NCBI GenBank assembly: GCA_051362555.1
Contig: CM120641.1
Location: 23,690,401 to 23,754,400 of the forward strand
Direction of reading: 5' to 3'
Length of the DNA: 64,000 nt
Origin: Lingula anatina
Lineage: Eukaryota; Animalia; Brachiopoda
A model generated the notes under the pieces. That model was not told the origin of the DNA. It did not search any database and saw only the letters and a list, made by a program, of their open reading frames with translations. A program made the position numbers and the translations under genes. Below, piece by piece: positions 6,918 through 43,324 of the stretch (the first letter of the stretch is position 1; each line of letters opens with the position of its first letter).

Positions 6918-9900
6918 GCTGGTTAAATGTGTTTTGTTGGTCTATCAAAAACTCTATAACTCCATTAAGTATGAAGTTAATTAATTTACTCTGAGTACAC
7001 ATCAGCAACATTTCAATTGAACTTCACAAATTAATGTTTTAGTTAAATTTCATAGTCAAATGATTTTATGTTCATTCCACTATTTAGGTTGTAATGGAAC
7101 AGGGGATACATACATCACTTCTCAAAATATAAACAGTTTCAATGGATGCACCATTATAGAAGGAAATCTGAAAATATTAAGTCCGACTATTGATGGGTAA
7201 GTGTGAAGGTGATATTATCTCTCTCTCTCATACCAGTATGGGATTGTTGGCCTTTTGTCTGTTCTTACATCTTTTCTCTCAGTGTAATTTTTAACTAACA
7301 TCTTTCCCATTCATCAGACCTCGCACAGAGGTTAATATGTCCATTACATCATCTCAATTGGAAAAGATAGTAGCTTTGCAGGATATATTGAAAAAGAAAA
7401 ATAACTTTAGGACATTTTCAAATGTGGATGGTATATACCCTTGAAGATTTCTTTGCTATGGCTCCGATATTGTCTTCCAGGGACATGTTCAACAATATAC
7501 CACCTATGTCGCCCTCGCAGTTGGAGGCATTAAGTCAAGTTCGAGAAGTGACACACTATGTCCTGATTCAGTCTAATAGTCCAAACCTCACCAGTCTAGC
7601 CTTTCTCAGAAATTTGGAGATAATCCATGGCAGGGAGTTACATACGTATGTATAACATGCATGCCGCCACTTATAAGTTTGAATAAAATGGACGTTTCAA
7701 ATTTTGTTCAAGAGACTTACACGTTCAGGAAACACAAAATTGTTTAAGTTGCAAACAGTTTGCTGCCAAATTTGCCATTGAAACCACCATTTTGTTTGCA
7801 TTTTTTCTTAATTTTATATGCAGATACGCAATAGTCTGTATATACCCTTTTTGTCCATCTGTATTTATTGTTACTGTAAGTTGACAAAGAGGTATGACTG
7901 CAACAAGCTGGTCTGTCTTCTTTTCATACAAAGCTGAATTTCCAGGCAGATGGTCAATTTAGAAATATCAGAAAGCAATACGATATTATTTCTCTTAAGT
8001 ATATTCTCTTTTAATTTGTATCTGCATATTTCCAGCTTTGCTGATCAGGCCATTTATAGTGCACATGTTTTGTTTGGCATTAGACAGTTCTGTTTTAGAT
8101 ACTATGTAACTGCATAGTAGACAATTAGAATGGTTATTTCGATTTCAGTTAAGTTTGATTTTGAAGTAAAATGTTACTAATGTAACTGTTATAATGGTAA
8201 TGCCGCAATTTTATTTGACCTGACCTCTGACCCCTGACCTATGACCCTGCACTCCCCCACCCTGTCACCTGGAGGTTTTGGCATGGACTGGGTTTATTTG
8301 TTTTGTCTTTCAGGATTTATTTGGTCTTATTGAAGCTTGAATTTTTTATATCAAATTGATATGCTTGTCTGTCTGTCTGTCTGTCAGTTGTAAGTGGGAT
8401 GAGTGGGTAGAAACATTGTGGAAAGGAATTACACATTATTGTTTATTTAACAAACCTTTTTAGTGCAATTAGTTTTTGCCTTGATGATAAGATATTATGG
8501 GAGAGGGTACACAAGGTGTTTATGTTTATTTTATTTTAGATAAATATCCCAATTACAGTATAAGGTTAAAACAAAGGGCTGTTTTAGTTCAATCACCAAT
8601 AACATAGGAAATTAAGGAACCATGGTTTTTTGTTTCCCTGATTTGGTGTCAAGTCTAACTGCATAATGATGATTCATTTAAAAGTAAATGTTTTTTTAAT
8701 GTACATGGTGTGATAAAATAAAATGAAAATATATCTAATCATATCTTTAAAGACAATCATTTTTATTATTAATGAAAGAACAATAGCAAATACTTAAACA
8801 AATAAATAAAATATACATTCAGTTCATGTATGTTTAATTTATGTCTTTGAAGATAATGATGGTGATGGCATAGAGTACTCCTCCCATGGACTTGAGCTGA
8901 TCAATGATGTTTTATCTGATCAGTGTAGTTATCGGCATACAGAGTGCACAATGCCTGTATTCGGCAGAGATAAAGGAAGGTCCTTTTCACGTCAGTGGTA
9001 CAGTTTTCTGTACCACATCAGTTTAACTGGCCCAAACTCCCACTGTACCATCAAATATAATAGAGTTAATTGGCTATGCCGCAAGCTGGCTTTAGAGTTG
9101 TCAATCCCTCAACATAGGAAGTTACAGATAACTGTATCACTTGATGTGTTAAGGACCAATATTTCTATTGGGTGAAACATGAGTAACCAGGAGAAGTTCA
9201 TGTGAGGAGAATTCTCTCTGGTCTTCATTATTTACATTGACATTGTATATCCAGCAATATTAATGCAATTTGCTAAATCCTGCTGGATCACTGATAATCT
9301 TCATAAACTTACTTATAGACGTGCATTCATCTGTAAATGTTTCAGTTTTGTGGTTTGAATTTTGATGCATTTGAATAAACTAATTTTTGTTATGAATAGA
9401 GTAAACCTAACAGGTTTTTTTAAATTTGGATTTATGTTATTTGCTTGATGGCATTTGTTCTTAATTGTTTGCATTTTTTTGGTTTTTTATTTTTTCCCTT
9501 CACACAACAGGGGGGGTAAAGCAACATTAGGAGTCCCACAGAGGTAATTTCAACTTCTGTTTTGTATAATGTCTGCACGAATCCGTTTCTATGTGTTACT
9601 CTATAATGCTTCACCCTGGCAGTGTAATGTGCCCTAGCAGGTAGACAATCAATACATACACCATCATCTACAGGTTAAATAAACATCATAGATGAACTAC
9701 TTGGGGAAATCTGTCCTCTGAAATGTGATCACCAATTGTTGTAATAAGATCTTATTAACATGAAGAAGAGCAAAGGCATGTTCCTCATGCCTGAGTGCAG
9801 GATCTAAGCTTCACTGACAACCTTTCATTCAGTAGATGACATATCTAACCTTAAAAGAGCACATTAAACCCTTCTGATGTTAAAAGCAGCTCCTTACAGG

Positions 9901-12900
9901 TCCCCGTAGGCTTCTTGGTGACATTTTAAAGATGGCTATATAAGCTTGGTAGCTGCCAAAGGGATGGCTTCACTAATACAACTGTAGTAGACTCTGCTCT
10001 AGACTAATGTTAGAGCTATCCTTATCAACAGTGTAATCTGAGTGAAAGTTTTAACCCTTTGTCAAGATCAAAAGTACAAAAACATATTTGTAAGTTGGTC
10101 AGGGTTGCATTATAGAAAATTATTTTTGATTCATGCTGTCACACTTAGAAATGCTACTCACTAATAAGGAACATTCAAAGGCTTTTTTGAACAAAATGTA
10201 TAAAATTTATATAAGAAAAAAGTATATGCATATATGCATTTAAAAAATAATTTAAAAAACAGTATTGGGAAAACATAGTTATGGTTCTCTTATTTTATAT
10301 GCAGAGATACCAAGTAAAAGGACTCAGAATCTAGGGATAATGATTTGGTAGATAGTCTTCCATTTAATAATATGGGTTGAATACGAATTGAATTTTCTGA
10401 ATTCTGGATAGTAAATCAACTAAAAATTGTTTTACAATATTGTCACAGTTATGTGCATGTATTACAAAATTGTTTTACAACATTGTCACAGTTATGTGCA
10501 TGTATTACTGAGAAATTGAAATCTTGGAGCAAACACCTGTTGTCTACCATCAGTTCATTAGATTAAGAATATAGGTGTGAAAACTGGTGATTCCCTGATT
10601 AGGTCTGAATCCCCTATGACAATGCAACAGACAGTTTTCAGACCTAGCCAGTCTCTCAGACCTAACCAGTCATTGAAACCTAGCCAGTCTCTCAGATCTA
10701 ACCAGTATCTGATACACCAACAACAGGTCGGTCTGGATGCCTTTGTTGGCATGGGCCTAATATGAAATGTAAACACAACAAAAACACAGGATGATGTAAA
10801 GATAAGTTGAAATGTCTCTGTTGGGGAGGTGCAGGATATTTGCTTGTTCCATCTGAAGTTAAGAATTTTACATTTGGCCTCTTCTTCTGATATGTTGGTT
10901 TGCGAAGATGGATTCTTTTTTAAACTTTGTCTTTCTCTAGTAAATTAAACTCTCCTTTGCGATGTGAACTTCTTGACTGCAATTATTTTGTAAAGTGGAA
11001 TTTAGAACTTCAGATATGTCTTGTACGTGAGTATGTATGTGTGTGTCATGTATGTGTGTACCATGTTACAAGATTCTCACCAGTATGTGCCTTTTTAATA
11101 CAAGTTTGAATTACAGGGACAGTATACAGGAGTGTCATGTCTAAAATTTACCCTTTTTCTGTTTAACAAATGTTCAAAGGCATTTTTTTTTCATTGCCAA
11201 ATTATTGCATCTCCATGTTAAAAAATCACATTTTTACATGCTGCTGAAATGCAAAGCATGTTTGTAACTGCTTATTAGGGCAGCAGCACTTAGATTTACA
11301 CTTTGTCAATATAAAATTTTGCCATAGTCGTATTTAGGAACACTTTAAAGTAAGTTTTTAGAATGAACATTTATAGTGAAAGCTGTGCCATTAATCTAAT
11401 TCTTGTGGGACATGGTGGCACAATACTGATTTCTTGGTTTGAATGTATGGCATACGCAGTGACTCTCACAAGTGTAGTCAAAAAATCCCCATGTTATGGT
11501 TCACTGCTGGAACCAAGTACCTATTCTTTAATTTGCATAGACCAAAAAACAGAGTCTAATATGTGACAAATTTTGTAAAGCTAGCAACAAGAAATGTGAC
11601 CCTTAAAATGAACTGTTTTTAGTTGGGAACTCAGCTGAGTGATGATGAGTGAGAATTAAATTGTTCCAGTTTTGTCCTTCAGAGAACCTGTATACTGTCC
11701 TTTTGTCTGCATGAAGCCTGCTACAAAACAATTTATGATAACTGTTGTTGCTTGAACAACTAATGTGGTTGTGAATTCTAATAACTAATCTTTTCTTTTA
11801 CTATATTTTTACAGGATAAAAGTGGGTTATTGAGGAAGATATAGCACTTAAATACTTGTGTGTCTTAAAACAGACTTGCTTAAGACTGTTTGTAAAACGA
11901 AAATCATAATCTTTATAATGAAAAAGAAAAAAAAAAAGAAAGAAATCTTACTAATCACAGTATTCTATATGAATATGGTCTTGTTGGCAGCTTGTTCCTG
12001 TATCAAGGTGGCGGTGACACTCGTCTTTATGTGTGTGCTTGTTTTTTTCTGCTTCCAGAGGATCAGCACTTGATGTATATTCACAAACAGTGACATACCT
12101 GGGGTTTAGTTCTTTGAAAAGGGTAAATGGTGGCGAGATTCGGATCACTCATAACAGTGCACTTTGCTACTGGTACACCATAAAGTGGGAGACCCTTACA
12201 GGTCCAAAGAGTCTCCATTTTGTTGAACAGAACAAGATAGAGGCAGAGTGTGGTGAGTCTGCATGTCAATCTCTGGACCATGTACCATGCTTGACGCCCA
12301 GCCATATATCCACCTGTCTCCACCTCCTCCACCTCCTCCAGGTTTTATTTTCATTTTTATTTTTTATTTTTAACCTGTCTCTATTGCATGCATTCAAGTG
12401 TTATTTAGCGTGTCTTTTGCATGGTTGCACCTTTTTCAGAGGCAGTGCACTGGACATTTATGTTCCAAATCTCAGAGCATTGAATTTAGTTTCCCTGAAA
12501 TCAGTGATGCATGGCGATATAAAAATGGAGTACAACAGCAATCTGTGCTACTGGTACACCATTCAGTGGAAGGATTTTCTTAAAGATAATGCAATCTTCG
12601 CTGGCAAGGATAACCCAAACAAGGCAACCTGTGGTAAGTAGGGATAGCTAGTCAGACTCTGACATCTTTATGCATCTGCTATATTCCTGTGGTAAGTTTT
12701 CTCCAATAGGTGCAGTTATGGAAATGCTGCTTCTTTGGATATTTCCAATGATTTTTGATGACAGCATTAGGGATTTGTTACCTGATGCTGAACCTCAGGT
12801 GAAATATAAAGAAACTTTTTTTTTCATATTAGATTTTGTTATCACTGAGAACCAATTTGTTAGTCGAGAACAAACAAACGAAAAGCCCATTTTGTGTCCT

Positions 12901-15900
12901 TGATAAGAATACAATGGAAGTCAACATTAAAATTATACAATGTGTAATTAGTGGATTGATAACCTTGAGGGAACATTTTCACAAGGGGTTACAAATCCAC
13001 TAATTCTCAAATGTTGTCACCACTAGTTGTTTTATTATATACCCAAGGCTATGCACACTTGTCTTCTTGAAAAAAAGAAATTGTAATCCCTGGCAGTGAG
13101 TTACGACATTTTGCTCAAATGATCCTAATTTGGTCAATGACCAATCTGGCCTGGTAATGGGTATATAATCAAATGATCAAAATTAGGAATGGTAGCCAGA
13201 AGGATGCAAAATGGGCTATGTATCAGTGGTTCCTGAAAAGGCAAAAGCATGTCAGAGTCTGAAACTTTTTTAAACTTATTTTTGCTTGCTTAACATGATT
13301 ATTTTTCATAGCCATTTTCTTCTGTTTAGTTATAGTTTTAGCAATTTTTTTTTGACACAAACTGACTGAAGTGTACTTTTCTGTTTACACAATAAATCGA
13401 ATTTGGGTTGAACTAAAAATGTCAGCATTTTTTTTTTACTTAATAATCATGAATATTGTCATCTAAACAGTGGATTTTGCCAAATGCCAATCTGATATCT
13501 GCTCATGTCTGGGATTCAAACCCAGTCTGAAATTAATATATTGGATATAATATATTGCTGGCATTATGACGTGTAAGGTCAAGGTCACAACAGAAATCAC
13601 TGAGGTCAGGTGATGGTGTAGTTTTATAATTTTAATTATTTTATTAGTTTGGATTGATAGTTTAAGTTTTTTAACCTTGTGGCATCATTTCACCCCTCTC
13701 CCTTCCCACACCCCCCAAATTCCTTTTCACTCCCTTGCCATGTGTAATGCAAGCATTGTCATATTACTGTATTTAATAGTTACTGTCATAATCCAGAACT
13801 TATATGTTACTAATATTGTTTTGGATGCAAAACTGTTTTGCTTAAATGTTATACATAAATGATGGAATGGAAATAGATGTATTTTGAATGGCTTTTACTA
13901 GCATTGCATTGTGAAGTAGTTTACATAGCTTTGTGAAGTAGTTTACATAGCTTTGTATTTCTGTCATTATCAGTTATGAAACCTTATTCTTAATAACCAA
14001 AAATACGTATTAAATATGTCAAATTATGACATGGAATTTTGAATGCCCACAAAATTGACTGGAAACCATTGGCCCAGAAATGAAAATTAACATGAATATC
14101 ATTATTTTGAATGTTTCTGTGAACAAGACTATTACAAAGTTGTTCTAAAGTGTGCTGGTGTCTTTTATATAAAAATTGTCATCTAGTGATTTATAATTGT
14201 TGTTGTAATTAGTTTGAAAATTGCTCATTCTTGTGAGTAGCATCCATACCAGCTGATTTTTTTAACACAAATTTCAGATGCACTTTAATAGTAATCTGTA
14301 TTCTTGACATGAAAACTGCATTTTTAACAAAACCATCTAACATGAATGTCCTGGAGATACATGTAGCATATCGCCAGCATTCAACTGTGGAAACCCTTTA
14401 GATTTATTTATTTTTTTAAAGTTATGTTTTTCCTTAATAATGCCTGCAAATTTTTGCCCAAAACATCAGTGTCAATCACTGCGATCTTGTAGATTTGATA
14501 GTCATTTTATTTATGTAGCTGAAGATGCAATACTTTAAAACTGCTACTTTAAAACTGATATTTTTGTCTGGTCGTTAAGCCAATTTCTGGTTTCAGAAGG
14601 TGACCATCTGGCAACAGGCACAGACAATCTTGTGTCTAAACTAGCATTTATACATATGTTATAAAAACCACTGTAAGAACAGGTTAGTTGTATGGATGTA
14701 TAAAGGCGAGATAAGTGCCTTGAAATATTATCTTGGCCCTGGAAGAATTTCTCATGGCAGTAAAAGCATTTTTCAAAACATGAAATACAAAATGCTTATA
14801 TTATTGGAAAACATGATGTATAAAAAAAAACTAAGAAAGGTTTGCCAAACATCATATTTGTTTTCAATATTTTGTTGCTGCTGCCTTCCAGAGCGAGAAG
14901 GGCGTGTGTGTAGCGCCGAGTGTCGAGATGGCTGCTGGGGACCAGGAGACGACAAGTGTGTCAAGTGTGCTAACAAACGCCTTGGGAACAAGTGTCTAGC
15001 AACATGTGACCCGAGTCTGGGAATATACACCAAAGATGACAACGTCACCTGTGACTACTGCCATCCAGAGTGTGCCAGGACATGTACTGGACCAGAGGCC
15101 AAGGACTGCGATAGCTGTAAGAACTATAAGAATGGACCATACTGTGTGAAGGAGTGCCCAGAGTCCATGTATGGTGACAACACCACCAAGGAGTGCAAAA
15201 AGTGCCATGAGAATTGTCTTCTGTTGCAGGAAGAGAGCGGGTATTACTTGTTTTCTATTGTATTATATTATATTTTATTATATTGTATTGTTTGAAAGAA
15301 GAAAGATTTTATTTACAGTGTTTGGTGAAAAGACTGAAAGCTTGGGTAACTTTTAAAATTATACAATGTGAATAAGTTCATTTGTTTATTGACTGTGAGT
15401 AAAAACAAATTTTCTGAGGTTAATTTTTTGCGTTACTTTATCTCAATAGAGCTAAACATATCTCACTAACTCACTCATGAATGATTGAATTTCAGTGGAA
15501 GTTTTATTTTTTACAATTCAGGTGCTCGGGTCCTGGGAACTTTGTTGGTCCAGGAGGCTGCTCCAAATGCAAGATGTTTATCTATGACAAAAGGACCAAG
15601 AACGTCACTGAATGCCTTCCTACATCAGACAAGGGGCAGCCGCAGTGTCCAGCAGGATATTATGGTCACAGAGTCACATCCCATGAACACTTAAATACAG
15701 CCTACGGGCTTCAGGGCATGCAGTCCTGCGAATTATGTAATCCCTTGTGTAAGACCTGCTTTGGGGCCCTGCCAACCGAGTGTAATGAATGCACCTTCTT
15801 CAAAGACATCAGCATGTCTGTGCATTTTTGTGTTGTCTCTTGTACTGAGCGAAATTATGAGGACCACAATGATAAGACTTGTAAGCCGTGCAATTCCGAG

Positions 15901-24900: not shown

Positions 24901-26327
24901 ATTAAGGTTTCTTTGAGAGAATCAAGGAAGGTAGGTCTAGCACAAAAACTTAGCGTCCTTCATCAACATCCCATGCTTGCCAAGAAGATCTGTTGTCTAT
25001 GTAGAACCCTTAGCATTGTGAATTGTTTGGTATAATTCTAAACATTACATTATTTGAATGTTCTATTTTCTGTAGATTCGTATTTGTGGTTTATTTTTTC
25101 CTCTTAGAAATCATAATGTGTATGTGCAATTGAGGCCTTCTGCTTTTTATATTTCCATCTTTTTTTTTTGCATCGATGACCTGTGTATTTTTATATATCA
25201 TTGTGAATGTGGTATTCAAATTGTATTATATCCAGTTCCATATTATTTTGACATGCCTTTTAGGGATTTGCTAATTATATATGTGTGAATTAGATATGTC
25301 ATGCTGTCTGGTAATATTCACCCTACACAACTAGAGTCAAAATGTATGGGACACCACCTGCATGTCACATATGTTGATCTATGTATATCTGCAGGCCTAC
25401 ATATACATGTAGGGCATGTGTATGTTCATATGGTTGATATTTACAGTTAAATGGAAGTCATCTCACTTCAACTCAGATTGCACTGAATTATTTACACAAT
25501 TACCTTCTAGTCTCGGCATGGATTCTTGATTATTGTCAGATATCTTTCATGTGAAAGAAACTACTATGTAACAGAGAAGATTTTATCTTTTATGATATTA
25601 TGTAGATGAAATTACATCATGAACATGTAGCCCAGACCAGTGACATTTGCCCACAGTTTCACATCTTGCTCAGATAAATTTTAAACTAACCTATTTATAT
25701 CAATATTTTCAGAAGATGAAGTTGATTCTCCAGTAAACCCGCAGCAGAAATCGCGGCCCGACCGTCCTCCTATGTTACCTGTAGACGAGGATGATTATCT
25801 CCAGCCCAAATCCACCAATCCAGCTGCTTACATGGACCTCATTGGTGGAAAAGGTAGTGTATCTAGGATCCTGGCCTTTTTTTGCTGTTGCTTTGTGGTA
25901 AAATACAGTCGCCTTTATTCAATGACACCTTTTTTTTTAAGCCTTTTTTTTTTTCAATTGATTTGTGGGGTATTCTATACATATATATTGTTTGTATGTA
26001 TCCTGGAAAATCGATTTGAAATAATTTGCATTTGTATGCATCATTTCAGAACAAGTTGAAGAGCCAAAGGACAATCACGACAATGATGTGTTCACAGAAA
26101 CTGGGAACATTGATAATCCAGAGTATTTTGCAGCCTTCAGTCCCACAAGTCCAGAGACCCCACTCAATGGACCTTTTAGTGATAAGAGACCACTGTATAA
26201 TCACAACAACAATAACAATAGACAATTAAACAAATCCTCAGCGTCAGCAGAGGACCTGCCTGATAGAAACTATTACAACGATATTCGTCCCATGGAGATG
26301 TCAAAAGTGGAAGAATCAAACTGCTAG
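5220..26327 (+). CDS. EGFR: Epidermal growth factor receptor (ErbB family RTK), 5'-partial, multi-exon
   Basis: GT-AG exons chain in frame: 5220-5332, 6322-6463, 6751-6852, 7088-7196, 7481-7645, [12059-12252 or 12440-12633], 14892-15240, 15522-15996, 16274-16359, 16677-16950, 17106-17390, 21101-21164, 21441-21532, 21742-21817, 22135-22281, 22446-22543, 24004-24195, 24473-24683, 25713-25853, 26050-26327. They encode furin-like Cys-rich domain II ([13 protein letters not shown]), the L2 domain ([10 protein letters not shown]), extended Cys-rich repeats, a TM helix ([21 protein letters not shown]), the kinase ([52 protein letters not shown]) and a Tyr-rich tail (EDYL, DDYL, NPEY). The exons for the signal peptide and L1 lie upstream of the window. 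Confidence 0.96.
5552..5782 (+). mobile_element. MITE family copy (AGATCGATCTA family)
   Basis: Aligns as the reverse complement of 30460-30663 over its length (e.g. CTGACAGTAATCTAGTGAGACTCCCC). Has terminal IRs with AGATCGATCT palindromes. A degenerate relative lies near 285-520. Confidence 0.8.
6877..6916. repeat. (TAA)n microsatellite
   Basis: Direct reading. Confidence 0.95.
10424..10507 (+). repeat. ~42-bp tandem duplication
   Basis: AAAATTGTTTTACAA(T/C)ATTGTCACAGTTATGTGCATGTATTAC occurs twice. Confidence 0.9.
10639..10710 (+). repeat. 18-bp minisatellite x4
   Basis: CAGACCTAGCCAGTCTCT / CAGACCTAACCAGTCATT / GAAACCTAGCCAGTCTCT / CAGATCTAACCAGTATCT. Confidence 0.85.
12059..12252 (+). 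CDS. EGFR: EGFR domain III exon, variant A (candidate mutually exclusive exon)
   Basis: ttccag|AGGATCAGC...GAGTGTG|gtgagt; 194 nt, phase 2 to 1. Encodes [64 protein letters not shown], equivalent to human EGFR exon 12. Confidence 0.9.
12440..12633 (+). CDS. EGFR: EGFR domain III exon, variant B (candidate mutually exclusive exon)
   Basis: tttcag|AGGCAGTGC...ACCTGTG|gtaagt; 194 nt, phase 2 to 1. Encodes [64 protein letters not shown]. Confidence 0.9.
17551..17658. repeat. Short foldback element; related partial copy at ~32200-32285
   Basis: GATTGATTTTTCACTAGATATTCA ... TGAATATGTAGTGAAAAATCAATC inverted repeat. The downstream CCCTGGTAGAGG is shared with the insert at ~32270. Confidence 0.55.
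17747..21038. mobile_element. Non-autonomous TIR DNA transposon, TA TSD (Tc1/mariner/pogo-type ends), in an EGFR kinase intron
   Basis: TIR CGGTAA(T/A)GTGCCATGAATTTCGAAC, 24/25 match, with TA on both sides. Repeated subterminal CGAAATTCA(T/C)G motifs. CpG-rich interior with no transposase ORF. Confidence 0.88.
23002..23436 (+). CDS. EGFR: Candidate alternative terminal exon of EGFR (alternative cytoplasmic tail, 144 aa)
   Basis: Acceptor ggttttgtag|TAT at 23001/23002 is phase 0, matching the donor at 22543. The frame is open for 144 codons starting exactly at the acceptor. All five Tyr are YxxL. AATAAA at 23704. Confidence 0.7.
   Translation, partial: YQQLEEQTKSEKSGVQSIFNGQASELIYESLGDDSIKEQCGEQPEPNVLSHVTNQPLGKDYSNLAAGSRLCENNSDFVLQTNNLDPDKAELDLHVAVLDLHKSDLDLPSADHSTPEYLALIATDDVGKSVFRVHYESLSSFHRR
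24907..24930 (+). CDS. EGFR: Candidate 24-nt in-frame microexon in the EGFR tail (GFFERIKE)
   Basis: ttttcctgtattaag|GTTTCTTTGAGAGAATCAAGGAAG|gtaggt; phase 1 to 1, frame-preserving and stop-free between exons 24473-24683 and 25713-25853. Confidence 0.45.
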
Positions 26328-31600: not shown

Positions 31601-34600
31601 CTTCCCCCGCTCACGGCATATCTTCAGCGGAGAATCGTTCGCGTACTATCGTCAAGACTTTGTTCGCGTAAAATCGTCAGAGGGAGATCGTTCGCGATCC
31701 GAGCGAGACGAAAAGGCAATTTTCATATCTTCATCGGGAGATTGTTCGCGATGTAAGCAATAATAAAATGCAGTTTTCATATTAGTTCAAGGAACTTAGT
31801 TTGCGAACGATCTTCAGCGGGAGATCATTATTTTAACCCCGCCTCCCCCTTTGAATATTATAAATAATATATATATTTAGTTTTATCTTTAACCCCCCTT
31901 CCCCCGCTCACGGCATATCTTCGGCGGAGAATCGTTTGCGTAATATCGTCAGGACTTTGTTCGCATAAAATCGTCAGAGGGAGATCGTTCGCGATCCGAG
32001 CGAGACGAAAAGGCAATTTTCATATCATCATCGGGAGATCGTTCGCGATGTAAGCAAAAATGAAATGCAATTTTCATATTAGTTCAAGGGATTTAGGGAA
32101 CTTCATTCGCGGAAGATCGTCAGCGGGAGATCATTATTTAACCCCCCCCCCCCCCTCCCACACACACTTTGGATTTTTTTTAAATATTCATTTTCAGTCA
32201 GCTAAAAATGACCCATCTATCTAGCTAGAGACATATCTGTGAATATATGTAAAAATCTATCAGTCTATACCCTGGTAGAGGGTACTCACGGCATATGTTC
32301 GGCGGAGAATCGTTTGCGTAATATCGTCAGGACTTTGTTCACGTAAGATCGTAAGAGGGAGATCGTTCGCGATCCGAGCGAGACGAAAAGGCAATTTTCA
32401 TATCATTATCGGGAGATCGTTCGCGATGTAAGACACTGACACTCAATCCTGGGAAAAGCCCTATGCAACAAACGTTCCCAAGTGCGTAATTTTTTTAATA
32501 TGTCGCGTCCAGGTTATGATGCAAGGTTGCAATTAGGCTTATCTTGATCCTTCTTCTTTATCAGGAAGTAGGTTTCTTACCGAGAAAATAATTCTCAACA
32601 TGTTTTCGGGTACAGTAAGTTAAATATAACTTAATCGAGATGCACTAATAAAAAGATTATTATTTACCACCAGGAAATGACTTAGGAAGTAATAATAAAT
32701 ATCCCACAATATAGGAGGGTCAAAGATAACAGTCGCTAAGGATAAAAGCCCAAAGGCCGGATTTTTGAAAATTTCGTCATACCCAGGAGTCGGGGAGAGG
32801 TAATTTTGAAAAATTAGTCGGATTTACATAATTAAAAATATTAATTAATTTTTAAGCGACGAAATTTTCAAGACTTTACCGTACAATAGTCTCACCAGTG
32901 ACAGCTTTTGATCCATGTTTTGAACATATAAGTTGACTTTATCATGTCTCTCTGGGAGAAGATTTTCAGTCTCCAGGTATTTCAGCAATTTTGCTGAAAT
33001 GACAATTTGAAACTAAGAAAAATGAGCAAAAAAAAAAAAAAATGTTGTAAAAAACAGCACCTCTGGTACCAGACACTGGGAAATTGTCTCCCATCCATAT
33101 CTACAAACTGATATAAAGTGTGCCCCCCCTACCCATCTTTAATATGATTTTTCCTACAGAGAATCATATGCTTTATATACCTTTGATGCCATTTATCCTG
33201 CAGAAGATAACATATCTAGTGAATAATCTCTGAAGACGTACACCTGCTACATCCATGGATTTCTCTAGCAGCCTCTTAGTTTCCTGACAACAAACAACAA
33301 GTAATATAAATTCAATGTAGGTTTTGCACATAAGGATGCTTGAAAAGGAGCAAAAACTTATAAAAAGCTGTTGTGTAATTATATGTAAAGACCTCTGGAA
33401 GATAGTTGGTCCAGTAAATTAAGTATGCTGCCAGATGTAAAAAGGCATTTGACCCCTTTTATTAGTTCATTTCTTTCTGATTGAAAGTCAAAGGGCTAAA
33501 AAATAAAATAAACATCCATACTTCATATCTCTCCTGTGATATTTTGCTTTGCCGATAACTTGACTCCAGGAGCTCCAACTTTTTCTTGTAATCCTTGCAT
33601 TGACTGCAAGGCCTCATTTCAGGCAAAGATGTCAGGCCAGGAACAGAAGATTGGGAATATTGCTGGAAGAAAGTAAAATGAAAACAGTCATTGCAATAAA
33701 TGCACCCCTTCCATTTAGAAATGAAAAAAAGAAAAGGTGATGAGATACTGTTTGCATGATAAAATCCTGAAATATGACACCAAAAACTTGTATTGCATGC
33801 TTTGTACATACATTTCTTACTACCCTTCCAGTGCAGAGGTTGCCCAGGAACATATGTTTTTTTGGGAGTTCAACTTTTAGGAGAAAACTCAAACAAATAA
33901 GCACTGTCTTTGCTTTCTAGTAAAGCTCACTTTTATTACATCTTTTTAAAAAGTCTCACTCAAAGCCAAACTGACTGTTTTTATTGACCAGGTATAGCCC
34001 GGCCCTGATTGAGAGAGAGGATAATTATGTAAATATGATTTAGAATGTTCTATGAGCACATTTTTGGATCATACTTCTTTGGGAAAAATCTTAAGTGCTT
34101 CGGTTTGTCAACTCTTAATTTTTCACATTAAAGGCTACCTGCTTTTGCATTTCCTTAACCATTTCTTTATGAGCTTGAAGTTCTTTCTGCAATTTACCCT
34201 TTCTCTCTTTTATCATTTCCTTCATTGCAATTGTTCTATTGGTTTTGGTCAAAACATTTTGCTCCCTGCAAAACAAACAAAAAAAATTAATTTATAAACA
34301 AACAAATAAATAAAATCCTTCAGGTTTTTTCACATTAGCACACATAGTCATAACTACTACTCAGTGCAAACAATTAAGCTGTCAGGGCAATTTTTTAAAG
34401 AAAATTGTCAGGCTTAGCTTTGTTTGCTAATTATAAATGACCGATTTACAAAATGTAAGTAAGTATGTGAAGGCAATTTTAAAGCAGTCATAGGGGCCTT
34501 TGGAAATGAGTGAGGTAGCTATAGCTAATGCACAGTTACTCCATGGGGACAATTGCTGAATGCTATGAGATTAACAGACAAAAAAACACCTCTTGACATT

Positions 34601-37600
34601 GAACAAAATACAGAAAAGCTGGTATTTATATGAGTATGTTGGAAACAAGAGGCGTGTCAGTCTATTAATCAGCTTTCAGCAAGAGTCCAATTACTGTGGA
34701 TTAGCTTTTGTGAGCTAACTCATTTTGAATGGCTTCATAATAAGTCTAAATTTATAATGATAACCATTCAACAAGATGGACAGTGGGTCTTTTACATTCC
34801 AGTTTCATCAGGAGCAGTCCTTCAGAAAACATATAAAGTAAACTTACAAGAGCTGGTAGTCCTTTTGTAAAGCATTAAATTGGCCCCACAGCCGCTTGTA
34901 TCTGTCCGTCAAACTGCCATACTTTGTGTTCTAAGGGGAAAACCGATAAGTATTGTGAATAAATAAATATATCAGTTAATGAGAGTTTTTTCTTATTTCT
35001 CTGGTTATAAAACATATACAAAATAGGCTCCTATGTGCAATAGATGCTTCTATGTTATCATAAATCAAAACTGAATTTAAAAATATTTATATTGCCTTCA
35101 TCAAAATTTAGGGAAGACCATAAAACTATGGAGATTATATAAGGAAACAGTGTATCTTTTTCACCTCTTCATTTCTTATTCCCTTGAGTGCCTCCTCGGC
35201 AGCAGACAGTTGTTGTTTGGTTTGCCTAAGTTCATCTGTCATCTGCTGGTTGTTGTGTTTTACTTTCTTCATCACTGCCATTATAGTCTATCATATGAAA
35301 AAAATGACTGTCACAAAAAAGAATCAATGTTTATCCATGAGAGAGTATCTGCATTTATTTCTATTTTAGGTTAAAATCATATTAACAACATTCAACCATT
35401 TGTTTATCTGAACAATAAGAAATCATTATTATATTATGATATTCTTCAGTACAAACATACATGCAAACATTACAATAAAACTGATAACACTGTACGCAAT
35501 ATTTCTAACCTCCAAATCTTTGTTTGCAAAAGCTTTGGCTATGGTGTTATCCTTGATTTCAAACCTCTTGTTCAGCAGTGCTTGGGACAACTTGAATTCT
35601 ATGGCAACCAGCACTAAAAAGATACAATGGTGCTAATAACAATAAAGAATATCAATTATTTCTCTTTTTATTTCTGTCAGATTCTTTTTTTTTGTTTCAT
35701 CTATGGAAGATTTGATAAGCTAGTATGACAGAACTGTCTGCACATTGTAAAATTTCTGCCATAACAAAATTGATGTTCCTATATAGATCATATCTTTTTG
35801 TCTAAACTGATGGAGATAATCCTACTTACGCTCAACTGCATTGCTAGCCATTTGTCCCAGGAGGAACTTGGCGTCACTGGGTACCTGAAACAAATGAACC
35901 ACACCGACATGAATCCCCTATTAAAAGTTATGGCAGAAGACGTATACCCACTAGGACGCAACTGCACCTGTCCATTCAGAAAGGTCCCCAGGCCAAACTG
36001 ATTTAATTTTTAAGGCTGACATCCTCTGGAGACCTATAAAAACTTATGCGAGTAGGTGGAGACAGAAAAAAAATGCTGCTAAAGTTAAGAAATACCCCCC
36101 CTCTAAATCCGCCACTGAACCATGAAAATGTGGATCAGTCCAGAGAAAAGTGAAAAAAAAAATTAAACAATATTTTTATATCATCCTCTTACTGGAAGAA
36201 TATATAACCACCTGTGGTAGCTATGGATTTAATTGACCTACTTAATTCATATCTGCTAGCTACATTTAATTTTTCAAATGCATAGACATGCTTTTTTCTA
36301 AAAGATGGTTATAAGAACATATTATGGATGACATAATGTGGAAAGTCTTGTGCCTCTTGCCTTGACTAAGAACACGTGGTTGCTTTGGATTACTAAGGGC
36401 ATGCCATATAATGAACAGATACAATCAAATCCATGTGAATAAACTTACTTCTTCTGTGGGTAAATTAGCCAACTGCCGGACGTAGTAGGCAGCATCTGGT
36501 AGATTCTCTTTGTCCAATATTTGTGCCACTGTGTCCTTGAACCGATTGATGGCTCTCAGCAAGTGTATGCTTTCCTTGTGGATTCCCAGCAACTGTTCCT
36601 TATGCTGTGCTTCAACTTTCCTAATGGTTGCCTCAGACCTTCAAAGGAAAAAGTAACAACTACAACACTGTAGTCTTCTTCATGACTTGGCGTGAAAACC
36701 CAAACTGCTATTAGATTTAAATTTTGCTTAACAAATGTCCAAACTCAACAAAACACTTTGGCCCATAGAGAGGTATTAATCAAAATCAATATATCATAAA
36801 ATTTTATATATAAATATAAAATAATGTTAATGACAAGCCTGCAAGTTTTTCAGATATTTGTTTATCATTAACAGAAAACTGAGATATAACAGTTGACTCA
36901 CCTCTGCTTTTCCTTATGAACAAAAACCTTCAGTCGGTTCACCTCTCCCTCATACTCATTTTTGAGCTTGTTGATCAATTTAGCTATATCATTTTGTGAC
37001 TTCCCTGACTTTTTCTCGCTGCCACTACTCCCAGCTGCACCTTCATGGTCAGAAATGGACCTCTGAATGTCTTCTAGCACCATCATCAGCTGATACTCTG
37101 CCTTCACTTCACCAAGTCTACTTTCTTGAAACTGAATCAACTCGTCTTTCATTTTGAGGTCTTGCAACAACCGCTCCACTTGCCTTTCAAGGGTGTCATT
37201 CTGGAATGAGATACCAGTACTAAAAGCCTGCCAGTGAAGGAAATTAAAGCATGATCTGACATGCCAAAATCTTTTCATCAAAATGAAAAAATGCTCAAAC
37301 CTTTAACAATTCAATAAACTCCTGAACAGGGATATTGCTTTCTATGACAAATGTCATATGATAGTCTTAAAACAGGAAAAAGGCAATTTGAATAGTATTC
37401 TAGTAAAATGTTAACAAAAATTTTTGTTAATAGGAAAATGGAAGCTATTATGATTAATAGAGAAAGGAAACACAATAAAGACACCTTCTGGTATAGAGTT
37501 CTCATCTGAAGGTTCAATAGGGGTCCTGTAGATTCTGGGGTCATTTCTCCAATTCTTTCCTGTTCTATTTTGGTCAATTCAGTCAAAGAATCAACCTTCA

Positions 37601-37830
37601 TCTCAAGTTTAGCCACCTTCTCTACAGATAATTAAACAGCAAGCAGATAGAAAATAGTGCAAAGATGTGAAAAAGAAACAAGGAAAGAGAAAGAATGCAT
37701 GAGGTGAGAAAATGGATGAAACAGTGAAATAATAGAAATCTGAAAAACTTCCTTGCAGTTTCAGTTGTTCATGGATTAGGCCAAATAAAATATTCAACAC
37801 AAATTAAATCCCAAGTCTCTCTCTTTCTGT

Positions 37831-37913
<83 letters not shown>

Positions 37914-40778
37914 GGCATATACACAGCATATGGCACAGAAAGATGACCAAGGTCTGCATTTTGTTCAAATCATGATTTGCTGGTTGTGGCACAAAGGAAG
38001 GCAGTGGATAGAAAAAAATAAAAAATTATAAGAAAGTAATGTCCATATTGTATCTTACAACCAAAGTGATAATTGTGTGGCTACAAAGTGTTGGATATTC
38101 CTACCTAAATTTTGCTTCATCTGCTTCTCCACAACCTGTTTCTCGTTTTCCTTTTCTTCAGCCAGGTTCTAGAGATACAAACAGAGAGTTTGTATCATGC
38201 AGCAGTATACATGAATATATGTATAGATTTTGACATACAATACAGCACTGGGAGCTTAAGTAATTCACGTTTTTCTACACTAGAGAATGAGGAATATTTG
38301 TGCAGCTTAACTGTTACAGTAACAATCACATCAGCGAGATCTGCTGATGATGTAGTTAATGAAGCAAATATTGATTACAAAATGAATTGAACTGATATGC
38401 ATTCAGTACAAGCTTATAAATAAAGCTCATAACTCCAAGCATAAAAAATTTATACAGTGTAGTTCAACTGTTTTTCTTGCTGCCTAATATTTGGTGCATA
38501 GACAGTGAAGCACTGTTTGGATTTCCTTTTTCTCAAACAATTAACTGACATCAGCTATAATCATTTTTTTTTTTGGTAAATTTCATGGCAAACAGGAGCT
38601 TAATTTTTACTGTTGGAATTACTTGGTTAATTTGCTAGTATTGCAAGCAGTAGAAATGGATGCAAGAACTAAACATCAAAATGATATCTAGTTTACAGGG
38701 TATGTTTGATTTAAATCAGTTCTTATAAATTTGATTTTGATTCAATTTAATTCTTAACTCAATTTGATGGAAAGCCCATCAACTATCATAGGGTACCTTA
38801 TAATACTGAATTTCTTCTTTCAGAGCTTCAACAACTGGATGGCCTGCAATAAAGTTCTGTTTAACTGATTCACTCATTTGCTCAGCTTCTGAAGTTTTCC
38901 CTAAAATGTGAAAAACAATACTGATATTAAGAGAGTTTAACATATGAAAAGTATATCCTCTGATAGAAATTATACGGTCTATCAATTTACAATAAACAGA
39001 CACAATTATGCCTAAAAACAATATCTTGTGTCATTTTCATTATATTTTAAGTTTGTTATTGGAAATATCATAATTTTTAATTTAAAATCAAATAATTACA
39101 GATTAGGTTATCAAAGAATATAATAGACATTTCCTTACTTATAACTGATTCTTTACGTTTTGGTAACTTGGCTCGACTTGAATCTGACTTGACCAGTGTA
39201 ACTATACTTCTAGTTTTTGATGTCTTCTTAACCACTTTCTCTTGTTTTTGTTTTTCTTCTTGAAGTATCTTTAACTTCTTTTCACATTCTTGATATTTTA
39301 TTTCACCCGCAGCCATGCTCTCTTGCAATCGATTCTGTGAAAATGATGAAAGCGATTTCTCACAACAAATCCATATTTTTCTACTCATTTACCTTTACAA
39401 CTCCCCCCCAACCCCCTTCCATAAAAAAAGAACTAAATAAGCAACACACACTCAAGTAAGCAGAAATGTTGATTGCTTACCCCTTAAAATAATAGAATAA
39501 ATGTTTTTTAATATTTTGAGCCTATTATTACAAATAACTCAAATAAATTTTAAAAAATATTTTCCTAGGAATTAACTTCTGCCACACTGATTCTTACCAC
39601 AGTCATATTCAGCTGGTCAATTTGTGCATCTAAAGTTTCTAGCCTGGTTCCTTTTTCTTCGTTCTCCCTCTTTAAACGTTCTGCAGCATTTGTAAGTCTG
39701 TCCACTTCCTAGAACAGAGTATAACAGAAACATAGAGAATTTGTCTAGAACAAACTGTACATTAAAAGAAATGATCGTCTAAACTGAGTAGATCCTATTA
39801 AGCTTTAATAAACCCTTAACCCTTATACTTCAACATTCTAAAAATATTTATCACTGATAAAGAAGTTAGATCTAGGCACTTTGCAAGATTAAAAAGCCAA
39901 CATTTACATATTTACGAAGATACTCACAACACCCATTTTCAACAGTTCTTGATCTTTTTGTTCTATTTGTTCTTGCCTCATTGCAACAGCTTTTTTTATG
40001 AACCGGAACTGCCGAGCACCATTTCTAAGCACTAAGGGAAAAAAGACAAGATGAGGTAAACACTTTTAAAATTTCTCTGAGCAAAGAAAGCATTTTAGAT
40101 GTCAACACTTAAACACACAAAATCCAGGCAAGTGCCTAATTTTTATGGTAAAAAGTCAAATTAATCACACCACTTCTATCCTCAAAACTGTATGCAAGCT
40201 GTAAATTCATATTGTGAAAGTATATGAATAGATATACTTCGATGCTGTAACCAATTATCATTTATTAACCAAGTTCCCTATAAAAGCAAAATGTCAAAAA
40301 GTGAAATACAGAGATAATAAAGAAATGGAGAAGAAAATGGCAGAATTGAGAAGTTTACCTTTTTTAACATTGCCTTTTACAACTCTGCTGGCATCATCCA
40401 GAGTCCTGCTGACAGTTTTCAAGGCAACCTCCATGTTGTTGGGATCACTCAGCAACTTGGTCTCTGAATGTTCAAAAATAAAACACTTTGTATTTGAGTA
40501 CAAGGTCTTGTTAAAAATCATGAAAAATTCCATCGGTGACTTGTTTTACTACTTCACTTCTTTAGTTATGGGGACATATATTACCATCCAATGCTTCCTT
40601 TGGTATTACTCTTTCTCCTCTCAGAAGTTGTCTCATTACTTGCTTTTTTTCTGAACTGGAATGGAAGATATACACACATCTATAAGTTATGCATTCTTTA
40701 CAGTGTGCAATAAAGTTCTATGGTATATTTCTCGCTCTCACTCTTTTCCTCTCCTTTCAACACGCACGCACGCACGCA

Positions 40779-40838
<60 letters not shown>

Positions 40839-43324
40839 CAAAAACATAACATTTTGGAGAGGATCAATTTAGGCTATCCAAGGGTGATGTGCCCACTCTT
40901 CCCTATTAATAAATAAACGTGATATATACATACAACAGCCATTACATGTACAACGTAGAAGTGAGTCTGCTAACCACATACAAACAGATTCACTATAATT
41001 CAGATTACCTGACAGAAGGGTCATCTTCCTCTATCAACCCTGCTTCAACCATCACTTTATGGCCAAGAACTTTCAGTTTTTCTCCAGCTTCTTTGGCAAA
41101 CTCAAGAGCATTTCTAAAATTAAACGATGAAAGGAAAGGAAAATCATTATGGTACGTGTATTATGCCAACTTACATTAGCAGACTTATTTTAGGCTTGTT
41201 TGATGAATAGGGTTGTTGATGTGACCATGAAATCTTGTGTAATATACAGTCACACTAAACATTTTATTGGTAAAACAATTACAACCTAAGTTTTAACAAT
41301 TAAGTATGTTAAAATATAAAATGAATATACAGTATTGTGTAAATTGAAATAAGCACAGGATGAAAGATAAGGAAGTCTATGTTAAAAATGTCACACAAAA
41401 CTTACAGTATTTCTAGATGGCTGACTTGAATTTCAAGCCCTTTGGCTTCTAACTGCTCAGGTGAAAGACAGTCCTCTTCCTGTAAAATATAACATTACAG
41501 AAGATACACATCTCTTATACACACAGTAAAAACATGACCAACATAACCCTAGTGCCCTCTATCTTTTACAAAACATCCCATTATGGATTTAGCTCTTAGG
41601 CCACATTAAGCACAGTAGACTAACTAGTCCACTTGTCAAATATGGCCAACCCACTTGAATACTTCCCCATGGGGAATCTATTTAGTGTCTATTTGCAGAT
41701 TAGACAGCAAGCTTTTTAGTGGGTTGCCATATTTGACCCCCAAACTAGTTAGTCCACTGTTCTGAATGCGACCTTAAACTCACCTAATATTATGAGTATC
41801 ATTTTGCAGGCATTGGTATATTACAGTGTACTCAGAACAAAGATGCCTGAAATCAAGTTTTTTAACAGCCAGTTTCTAACTCAACCCAATTTAATCATGC
41901 ATACACATTCACTACATTGTGCTGACTTACTAAGTCATTACATGAATCCAACCACATTTCAACTTCTTTCATGAGCTGAAGTCTTTTTTCACAACCATTT
42001 AAATATGTTTTCACCAATTCCATCATATTATGCTGTTCTGCTATCTGAAAATCAAAGTAAATTAAAAAAAAAAAAAAAAATTTCACTCTTATATTACTGC
42101 GGAGGTATTTTAAATGGCACCAAAATATTTCTCAAGTAAAAAGGTATATTTCAGATAGTTAAAAATAACAAAAAAGAAGTAGACTGAATATCATCAATGA
42201 TTTTCTTTTTATTCAATTTCCATAATTTTTTAACAATTGTCTTACCCTTTTCTTCTTTTCTTTTATATCAAAAACTGCAGTGGGTGGTTTACGCTGAAGC
42301 TTTTGTAACATTTCACGCTGAAATGTGTGAAGTCAAAAGTTACTTTTCTCTGCCAAAAAAGAATGTAATTGCAGAAATAATAATTTTGCTATCAATCAAA
42401 TGCAAATATGTCTGCATTTGGTTTGAAAAAAAAAAAGAAATCCTAATCTCAGCACCAGACACAAATAATCAAACAAGAAACCATAAACTTCATGAAGTAA
42501 CAAAATAATCATATGGAAATAATTCAATGAAAACAAACAAGGAAATGTCAGTTACTATCATAAAAGAAAAAAAACAAAGCATTGGTGCTTAATTGTGTAA
42601 GATAATTTACCTTATTCGTTTGGAAAGGAAGCAGAGAAGAAAAGGTTTAACAATTTGATAAGATGTCAACAAAAATAAAATAAAATAAAGTAATAAATTA
42701 GCTTTTTTGGTTAATGAAAATATATGAAAATTACTTTATATCTCCAACCAAATATTTTGACTTATATCACAGTCGTCATGAAGAAGAAAAAGATTAAATG
42801 AATACCTCTGAAGATGAGGAGTAGATATTGGTGACCATACCAGCATTTTCATAAGCCTGAAAAATTCAAAATAGAGAAAATGCAAGGAAATGATATATAT
42901 TCCTGTTATCAGTACCTTTTTCTTAAATAAAGTGATATATCAGAAATGAACCCAACATGTCTTCCTTTAAAAGTTCAAACTTTGTGAATGTTGTTTATGT
43001 TACCCACAGATCTGTATTTTTATTTTTATGAAAATTAAAAAAAAGATAAAAGGAGGCAGCTAGATTGCTTCCATGTTAGTTATTGGCCTTTTTCAGTCTT
43101 ACAATTTTAATCCTCTCGTGAATTATGTTCAATCTGGCTGCAATATCCAATTTCTTCCTGTCAGCCTCCTTCCTGTCATTCTTCTCTATCACCTCCAATG
43201 CATGTGCTGGCAGGGGCACTTTCATAATGTCCACTGGAACCAGAACCATTGGATTTCTAGAAGCCTTTGTTTTTTTCTTATGTAGCATTTTCTCATTTTT
43301 CTTTTTCCTTTTTGTTGGTGGCAT
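28654..43324 (-). CDS. FAM186-like long coiled-coil protein, multi-exon
   Basis: ATG at 43324 (MPPTKRKKK...), followed by many short coiled-coil exons (e.g. 42806-42856, ~39141-39335, ~36930-37200, ~36449-36638). The 3' exons chain in frame: 33181-33283 (LEKSMDVAGVRLQRLFTRYVIFCRI), 32896-32993 (VNLYVQNMDQKLSL), 30270-30346, 29825-30065, 29286-29392 (DLPRLVEMDM), 28654-28693. These recall the FAM186A/B C-terminal motifs (RLQYLCHKYIFYRRL, NLYIFLENIDR, DIPRLLTLDV) as remembered. Not all middle exon borders were resolved. Confidence 0.75.
28718..29231. mobile_element. PIF/Harbinger-type (Tourist-like) MITE
   Basis: ~48-bp TIR AGCACCCCGCACAC(G/A)GTGAGCAATTGGCG(T/C)GCGCCACTTGCGCTG(T/C)GCC; TTA TSD at 28715-17 and 29232-34. 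Confidence 0.9.
30460..30663 (-). mobile_element. MITE family copy (AGATCGATCTA family), inverted relative to 5552-5782
   Basis: Ends GGGCGTATTCCCAGAG ... CTCTGGGAATGGGGTC with TAA/TTA flanks; interior matches 5552-5782. Confidence 0.8.
30815..32881. mobile_element. Non-autonomous TIR DNA transposon, TA TSD, in a FAM186-like intron
   Basis: Perfect 25-bp TIR CGGTAAAGTCTTGAAAATTTCGTCG with TA flanks. Subterminal TTGAAAA(T/C/G)TTCGTC repeats and an internal tandem array. Confidence 0.9.
31388..32430 (+). repeat. ~297-bp tandem repeat (about 3.3 copies) built from ~50-bp GAGATCGTTCGCGAT subunits
   Basis: GAGATCGTTCGCGATCCGAGCGAGACGAAAAGGCAATTTTCATATC at ~31685, ~31981 and ~32359, with a degenerate copy at ~31388. 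The third interval contains an ~80-bp insert. Confidence 0.88.
37833..37910. repeat. (TA)n microsatellite
   Basis: Direct reading. Confidence 0.95.
40760..40834. repeat. (CACG)n/(CA)n microsatellite
   Basis: Direct reading. Confidence 0.95.
41599..41773. mobile_element. Short palindromic Harbinger-type MITE
   Basis: Imperfect ~30-bp TIR (GGCCACATTAAGCACAGTAGACTAACTAGT / ACTAGTTAGTCCACTGTTCTGAATGCGACC), inner IR GTCAAATATGGC..AACCCACT, TTA TSD. Confidence 0.8.

Follow-up and report, generated by a model that had tools for sequence, protein, structure and literature searches.

Paired tandem exons for the last part of domain III in the EGFR gene of the brachiopod Lingula anatina

The EGFR gene of Lingula anatina contains two exons, A and B, that fit tandem-duplicated mutually exclusive exons: they are adjacent, homologous and equal in length and phases. 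Both are expressed, and RNA-seq reads demonstrate that they are used as mutually exclusive exons. Each encodes the last part of receptor domain III, and an optional microexon lies upstream of the pair.

Structure and use of the exon pair

The gene lies in the 64 kb stretch of DNA analysed here (the window). Exon A is a 100% match to one database protein, Lingula anatina EGFR isoform X1. Protein P0001 aligns with human EGFR along the full length of both and has the domains PF01030, PF00757, PF14843 and PF07714; the gene is an EGFR/ErbB receptor tyrosine kinase with an L1-CR1-L2-CR2 ectodomain, one membrane span and an ErbB-type kinase. The window begins within the gene, and residues 1-227 map to nothing in it. 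RefSeq holds isoforms X1-X5 (XP_013383048.1 to XP_013383052.1), automatic predictions without interpretation in which both exons and the microexon are present; in the five of six cluster members compared, isoforms X1-X4 take A and isoform X5 takes B. The relevant features are as follows.

7481..7645, + strand: constitutive upstream exon, middle of domain III, phase 2 donor; residues 383-437 of P0005
9511..9543, + strand: optional microexon, 33 nt, frame-preserving, adds 11 residues; in RefSeq isoforms X1-X3; overlooked by the initial annotation
12059..12252, + strand: alternative exon A of 194 nt (phase 2 to 1), covering the last part of domain III; RefSeq isoforms X1-X4
12253..12439, + strand: A-B intron, 187 nt, with three TGCATG motifs at 12260, 12385 and 12418
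12440..12633, + strand: alternative exon B, the paralogue of A, also of 194 nt (phase 2 to 1); RefSeq isoform X5 (P0002)
14892..15241, + strand: constitutive downstream exon, where cysteine-rich domain IV starts; phase 1 acceptor; residues 502-618 of P0005

The initial annotation had described two 194-nt exons with equal phases and canonical splice sites, free of stops and indels, and re-measurement confirmed this description. Both acceptors are AG and pyrimidine-rich, and the donors are GT (GTGAGT for A, GTAAGT for B). Both exons are open in the same frame. An ungapped alignment reproduced the reported identity of 26 of 64 residues, with 100 of 194 nt identical, and its BLOSUM score of 135 compares with a maximum of 8 in 2000 shuffles. 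Receptors made with A and with B differ at 38 residues and are identical elsewhere. In test translations of the RNA spliced between 7645 and 14892, A alone or B alone stays open, joining A to B gives a stop at codon 100 and skipping both gives a stop at codon 28; the frameshift predicted for double or zero inclusion thus reaches a stop in either case. Because the exon runs from phase 2 to phase 1, any tandem duplicate of it is automatically an either/or exon. Only A and B matched a family HMM of 46 related segments in a six-frame search for a third copy in the window, and no second duplicated exon elsewhere in the gene was seen among the Lingula EGFR isoforms compared.

RNA-seq evidence comes from eight of the nine runs with the species label (X1-X5 and X7-X9; X6 was left out). 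Between 6 and 30% of each run was read, and junctions were listed from 3 reads upward. Runs X1, X4, X7 and X2 were examined over 7400-15300. Runs X8, X9, X5 and X3 were examined over 9400-12760, where junctions were read from loose ends bearing the letters of the neighbouring exon (best rows, with 3 more beyond). All four junctions named in the initial annotation were found. In runs X1, X4, X7 and X2, respectively, 7645>12059 has 13, 19, 18 and 13 reads, 7645>12440 has 2, 8, 30 and 0, 12252>14892 has 8, 21, 24 and 10, and 12633>14892 has 6, 0, 17 and 0. The loose ends in X8, X9, X5 and X3 give 24, 20, 17 and 13 reads upstream of A and 7, 17, 12 and 14 downstream of it. For B they give 37 and 33 upstream in X8 and X9 (none among those listed for X5 and X3) and 22, 21 and 5 downstream in X8, X9 and X5 (none among those listed for X3); depth within B is zero in run X3. 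Over the eight runs, A has 137 upstream and 113 downstream junction reads, and B has 110 and 71.

Both exons are therefore joined to both neighbours. Among the joints listed (at least 3 reads, 6-30% of a run), no A>B joint occurs in any of the eight runs, and no joint skipping both exons occurs in the four runs that cover both flanks (X1, X4, X7 and X2), in agreement with the rule of one exon per mRNA that had been proposed from the reading frame. Decay of RNAs with both exons or with neither could hide such joints.

The share of B among junction reads is 0.28, 0, 0, 0.17 and 0.15 in runs X1-X5 and 0.53, 0.66 and 0.59 in runs X7-X9. By study it is 0-0.28 in P1 and P2 and 0.53-0.66 in P3, with tissues coded and study and population confounded. 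Runs X7-X9, which make up P3, are a single study whose reads show about 5% divergence from the window despite the same species label. Since tissues are coded and the B-rich runs come from one diverged population, the shift in A:B ratio between studies may be genetic or technical rather than regulatory. The X7-X9 animals possibly represent a separate population or a cryptic species, and domain III is possibly evolving fast.

The microexon inserts at the loop equivalent to human Q408/H409-G410. Its joints are 7645>9511 (3 reads) and 9543>12059 (5, 2 and 4 reads, 11 in all, in runs X7, X8 and X9). Despite the predominance of B in these three runs, the listed joints include none from the microexon to B, a pattern that hints at coupling of microexon inclusion to A. 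Predicted proteins of other animals carry inserts at the same junction, an optional 15 residues in Glandiceps and about 19 residues in a Dermacentor isoform.

Several other features were observed in and around the gene. RefSeq isoform X2 has a signal-peptide first exon, located upstream of the window, that differs from that of X1 and X3-X5. A second small optional exon of 8 residues, at about 24909-24930 in the EGFR tail (GFFERIKE region), is missing from isoform X3. Downstream of EGFR, exon-like open frames of another gene lie on the minus strand at about 33400-42200, and some are coiled-coil-like (e.g., 36901-37302). Foreign reads pile up at about 9002-9033 and 15256-15289 with loose ends on both sides, and these sites are likely dispersed repeats.

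Candidate splice control

The + strand of the 64 kb contains 22 TGCATG motifs, and the A-B intron holds the only cluster of three or more. A fourth motif lies inside exon B at 12508, giving four in 250 nt (12253-12513). A fraction of 0.0004 of 5000 dinucleotide shuffles reaches three motifs in the intron, for a cluster that was noticed post hoc. RNA-seq reads cover this intron only thinly. Single TGCATG motifs also occur in the upstream intron at 7658, 10454, 10497 and 11708. Proteins of the Fox-1 family favour an exon when their motifs lie downstream of it and repress it when the motifs lie upstream, and they act in this way on FGFR2 IIIb/IIIc and egl-15 5A/5B (PMC2777236).

From this arrangement we infer that an Rbfox-type protein governs the choice between A and B. 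A mature Lingula EGFR RNA takes one of the two tandem copies; the protein, bound to the UGCAUG cluster, would promote A, which has the motifs downstream, and repress B, which has them upstream and inside. Rbfox-rich cells, which in other animals are muscle and nerve, would then make A, sometimes with the microexon lengthening the adjacent contact loop. Joint inclusion is likely blocked by this regulated choice, and leftover transcripts would be cleared through the frameshift stop by nonsense-mediated decay.

Two other means of exclusion were considered. Docking/selector pairing is unconvincing, as the best complementary matches are 9-14 nt long and mostly of low complexity. Steric exclusion of A+B splicing looks unlikely: a branch-point-like TTAAC lies 117 nt from the donor of A, and this far candidate is favoured over another, TTGAC, at 38 nt.

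Position in domain III and possible function

Alignment puts the swapped segment at residues 411-475 of mature human EGFR, in domain III as initially placed, a segment that we take to be human EGFR exon 12. For human EGFR, 16 domain III residues are tabulated as contacts of EGF-family ligands (Table 1 of PMC11400634). By alignment ten of these fall outside the swapped exon (nine precede it and H409 sits at the microexon junction) and six fall inside. At the equivalents of F412, A415, V417, I438, K465 and I467, A and B have S/S, D/D, Y/Y, R/K, F/A and E/K, where the K465 and I467 assignments hinge on a one-residue gap whose placement follows the conserved Asn and Cys together with a modelled strand. 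Three positions are thus identical, one is conservative and two are different, and the resulting 50% identity is no lower than the exon-wide 41%. The equivalent of S440 is T in A and E in B.

By homology, then, the exon would encode ligand-contact residues (six of the 16 human contacts), with a site 3 pocket centre that appears common to A and B and a rim that appears to differ, including one charge reversal. Such a pattern points to tuning rather than to a swap of surfaces. The initial proposal of a swapped ligand-binding surface was overstated, given that only six of 16 contacts lie in the exon and three of those are the same in both copies. The hydrophobic human pocket has a polar counterpart in Lingula, so the human contacts may not carry over.

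A predicted model of domain III in the B form, the only form modelled, has a pLDDT of 97 and TM scores of 0.92-0.94 to EGFR/ErbB4. Its strands at exon positions 2-7, 26-30 and 53-56 match the human register. Differences between A and B cluster in loops and towards the C terminus (positions 44-63) rather than at the pocket centre common to both.

We lean, by a modest degree, towards ligand tuning as the function of the pair, with A and B receptors differing in tightness or selectivity for an EGF-type ligand. Exon choice would tune the site 3 rim at the equivalents of I438 (R/K), K465 (F/A), I467 (E/K) and S440 (T/E), and the pocket would not be replaced. In conservative searches, two other brachiopods each yielded a single EGFR and a single EGF-type ligand, and C. 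gigas and S. purpuratus likewise yielded a single EGF-type ligand apiece (PMC4914847 and its Table 2). If those inventories of one ligand per species are complete, the exons cannot select among ligands and would instead affect sensitivity or some other property.

A less probable reading, which we hold as a minority possibility, is that what the exons alter is not ligand binding. Candidates are basal activity or autoinhibition, the way domain III packs against domains II and IV, a co-receptor, and evasion of a binder from a microbe or parasite that targets the exposed face of domain III. The location of the A/B differences off the pocket centre fits such a role, as does LET-23, in which a reoriented domain III packs on domain II (PMC13416820). 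Population variants fit it too, being mostly amino-acid-changing in the domain III exons, as if the whole of domain III evolves fast. Between the window and the diverged population, changing/silent codons number 4/0 in A, 4/0 in B, 6/2 in the upstream exon and 5/8 in the downstream exon; these counts are tiny, come from the best-supported 40 rows per comparison (125 and 66 more lie beyond) and are too few to test. Against a role apart from the ligand, the contact-equivalent positions are those that differ in other lineages, and neither A nor B contains an N-glycosylation sequon.

Divergence and recurrence of the exon

A and B have dN of about 0.63 and dS of about 2.7, the latter near saturation, for a dN/dS of about 0.23. 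They agree at 14 of 19 family-conserved columns versus 13 of 46 variable columns (p=0.001). Both remain intact in the population sampled by runs X7-X9. An open frame alone survives in 5-14% of neutral simulations and is weak evidence. The duplication is old and under purifying selection, as the initial annotation had suggested.

Because single-copy orthologues of the segment share only about 30-45% identity with one another, similar to the 42% between A and B, divergence by itself is no sign of new function. Such figures would suit redundant copies, that is, functionally equivalent proteins both kept since different cells came to splice different ones. The frame arithmetic, which applies to any duplicate of this exon, and the 11 of 19 clusters without a swap among listed members (below) would suit them as well. 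We consider redundancy improbable, and more so than a role apart from the ligand: the Lingula isoforms have no other duplicated exon, yet this one recurs in four lineages; both copies persisted to synonymous saturation; and one database open reading frame, P0208, groups with B against A (support 97/81 and 89/59 in two trees), suggesting long retention. Lastly, the reading of one copy as a decaying pseudo-exon, as an artefact of assembly (an uncollapsed allele) or as splicing noise, at which the absence of B from two of eight runs (X2 and X3, at low depth) might hint, is refuted by junction reads for both exons and hardly credible besides, since B is the majority form in three runs, is open, keeps the fold in the model and is intact in the diverged population, and since A and B are covered in the same runs by 99% identical reads, with unspliced reads spanning the surrounding intron bins.

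Nineteen EGFR clusters from other species were compared in two sets (10, then 9), the second chosen after leads from oysters and echinoderms, so the fraction with a swap is biased. At most 15 members per cluster were compared, and these are predicted proteins only, so tandem exons there are inferred. The same segment is exchanged in at least 8 of the 19 clusters, in 10 other species (oysters, a clam, crinoids and a sea urchin), for three phyla in all. The mollusc clusters are those of Mercenaria mercenaria, Crassostrea virginica, Ostrea edulis, Saccostrea (echinata, cucullata) and Magallana (gigas, angulata); the echinoderm clusters are those of Antedon mediterranea, Anneissia japonica and Strongylocentrotus purpuratus. 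In nine swap pairs the proteins are identical outside a span of 64-75 residues, and the M. gigas pair differs elsewhere too. No swap was seen among the listed members for Owenia, Lineus, one Octopus cluster, Haliotis, scallops, Watersipora, Mytilus, Ptychodera, Glandiceps, Branchiostoma and Ruditapes, where annotation can miss exons. Contact-equivalent positions are more different between copies than in Lingula, with 2 of 6 identical in the clam and 0-1 of 6 in both oysters and echinoderms. None of the EGFR homologues collected carries both exons in tandem.

A profile search of 1.84 billion representatives for close orthologues of A and B returned no named brachiopod and a single open reading frame bearing the CYWY motif, P0208. 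A tree of 46 segments over 68 columns groups A, B and P0208 together (92/85), with P0208 sister to B. In it the clam copies nest within a heteroconch clade (96/90), one copy from a crinoid pairs with one from an urchin (96/87), and each of the two oyster types forms a clade spanning four genera, without the two being joined to each other. A 21-row tree also recovers the Lingula group (83/90) and the clam group (78/93) as clades, and there oyster monophyly is not rejected (p 0.24). In AU tests, uniting Lingula A with clam or oyster copies costs 4-11 log units and is not rejected (p 0.09-0.10); four unions were tested, all with Lingula A and none with echinoderm copies. Separate old duplications are thus favoured, not proven, over one shared ancient duplication, which the best trees disfavour though the AU tests do not reject it. 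The exon was likely duplicated more than once, in a brachiopod, heterodont clams, oysters and echinoderms. The second oyster copies (P0171, P0194, P0405 and P0475) evolve far faster than the first, with 41-62% identity among genera versus 82-83%, and oysters may have more than two exon copies.

The closest design is that of chordate FGFR1-3 IIIb/IIIc, a tandem duplicated either/or exon for the second part of the ligand-binding domain of a receptor tyrosine kinase (PMC5703972), and the analogy drawn at the outset holds in this respect. As in Lingula, UGCAUG lies upstream of and within the second FGFR exon (PMC5703972, PMC2777236), and the FGFR region has been termed a hotspot for recurrent alternative splicing (PMC5703972), which parallels the recurrence of the EGFR exon. 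Unlike the Ig segment of FGFR, the EGFR segment is part of an L-domain beta-helix, and the Lingula copies share the pocket centre. FGFR has been proven to switch ligands and to be regulated between epithelium and mesenchyme, whereas a ligand effect of the Lingula EGFR pair is putative. C. elegans egl-15 5A/5B offers an invertebrate receptor with either/or ectodomain exons under Fox-1 family control through UGCAUG; egl-15 is an FGFR gene in which Fox-1 shifts splicing from the upstream exon, which it represses, to the downstream one, the opposite order to the Lingula prediction (PMC2777236). TGF-beta receptors likewise underwent repeated independent exon duplication of the ligand-binding region, but they usually splice both copies together, which the Lingula frame forbids (PMC13187141). 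ErbB receptors have splice variants of their own (ERBB4 JM-a/JM-b and CYT-1/2, soluble EGFR, EGFRvIII, vIV and vA); as described in PMC5343918, these truncate, delete domains or change the juxtamembrane region or tail, and none swaps a ligand-binding segment for a paralogous copy.

The initial annotation considered such a switch unfamiliar in ErbB receptors. No published description of the EGFR exon pair or microexon was found by title and abstract start (few subscription articles were reached, and supplements, e.g., for the sea-urchin events of PMC5703972, could list the exon), while both forms were already predicted in RefSeq. The pair is apparently undescribed in papers though present in RefSeq, and it is expressed, conserved and recurring in three phyla. 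New here are the microexon, joined only to A among the joints listed, the TGCATG cluster and the swaps in 10 other species.

EGFR is among the best-studied receptors, and to our knowledge its ligand-binding domains are treated as fixed for each gene. We tentatively propose, as an idea less likely than not, that the site 3 exon is a hotspot duplicated separately in four lineages, accompanied by microexons in Lingula, a hemichordate and a tick, and that invertebrates with one EGFR obtain a cell-type ligand code by Rbfox-type splicing. If true, splicing reaches what vertebrates reached with four ErbB paralogues and FGFR with IIIb/IIIc. The exon pairs are natural matched pairs for finding the site 3 residues that set affinity. 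Exon choice would alter the interpretation of EGFR expression and knock-down studies in oysters, clams and sea urchins, and splice choice at site 3 would explain cell-specific growth-factor sensitivity in animals with one EGFR.
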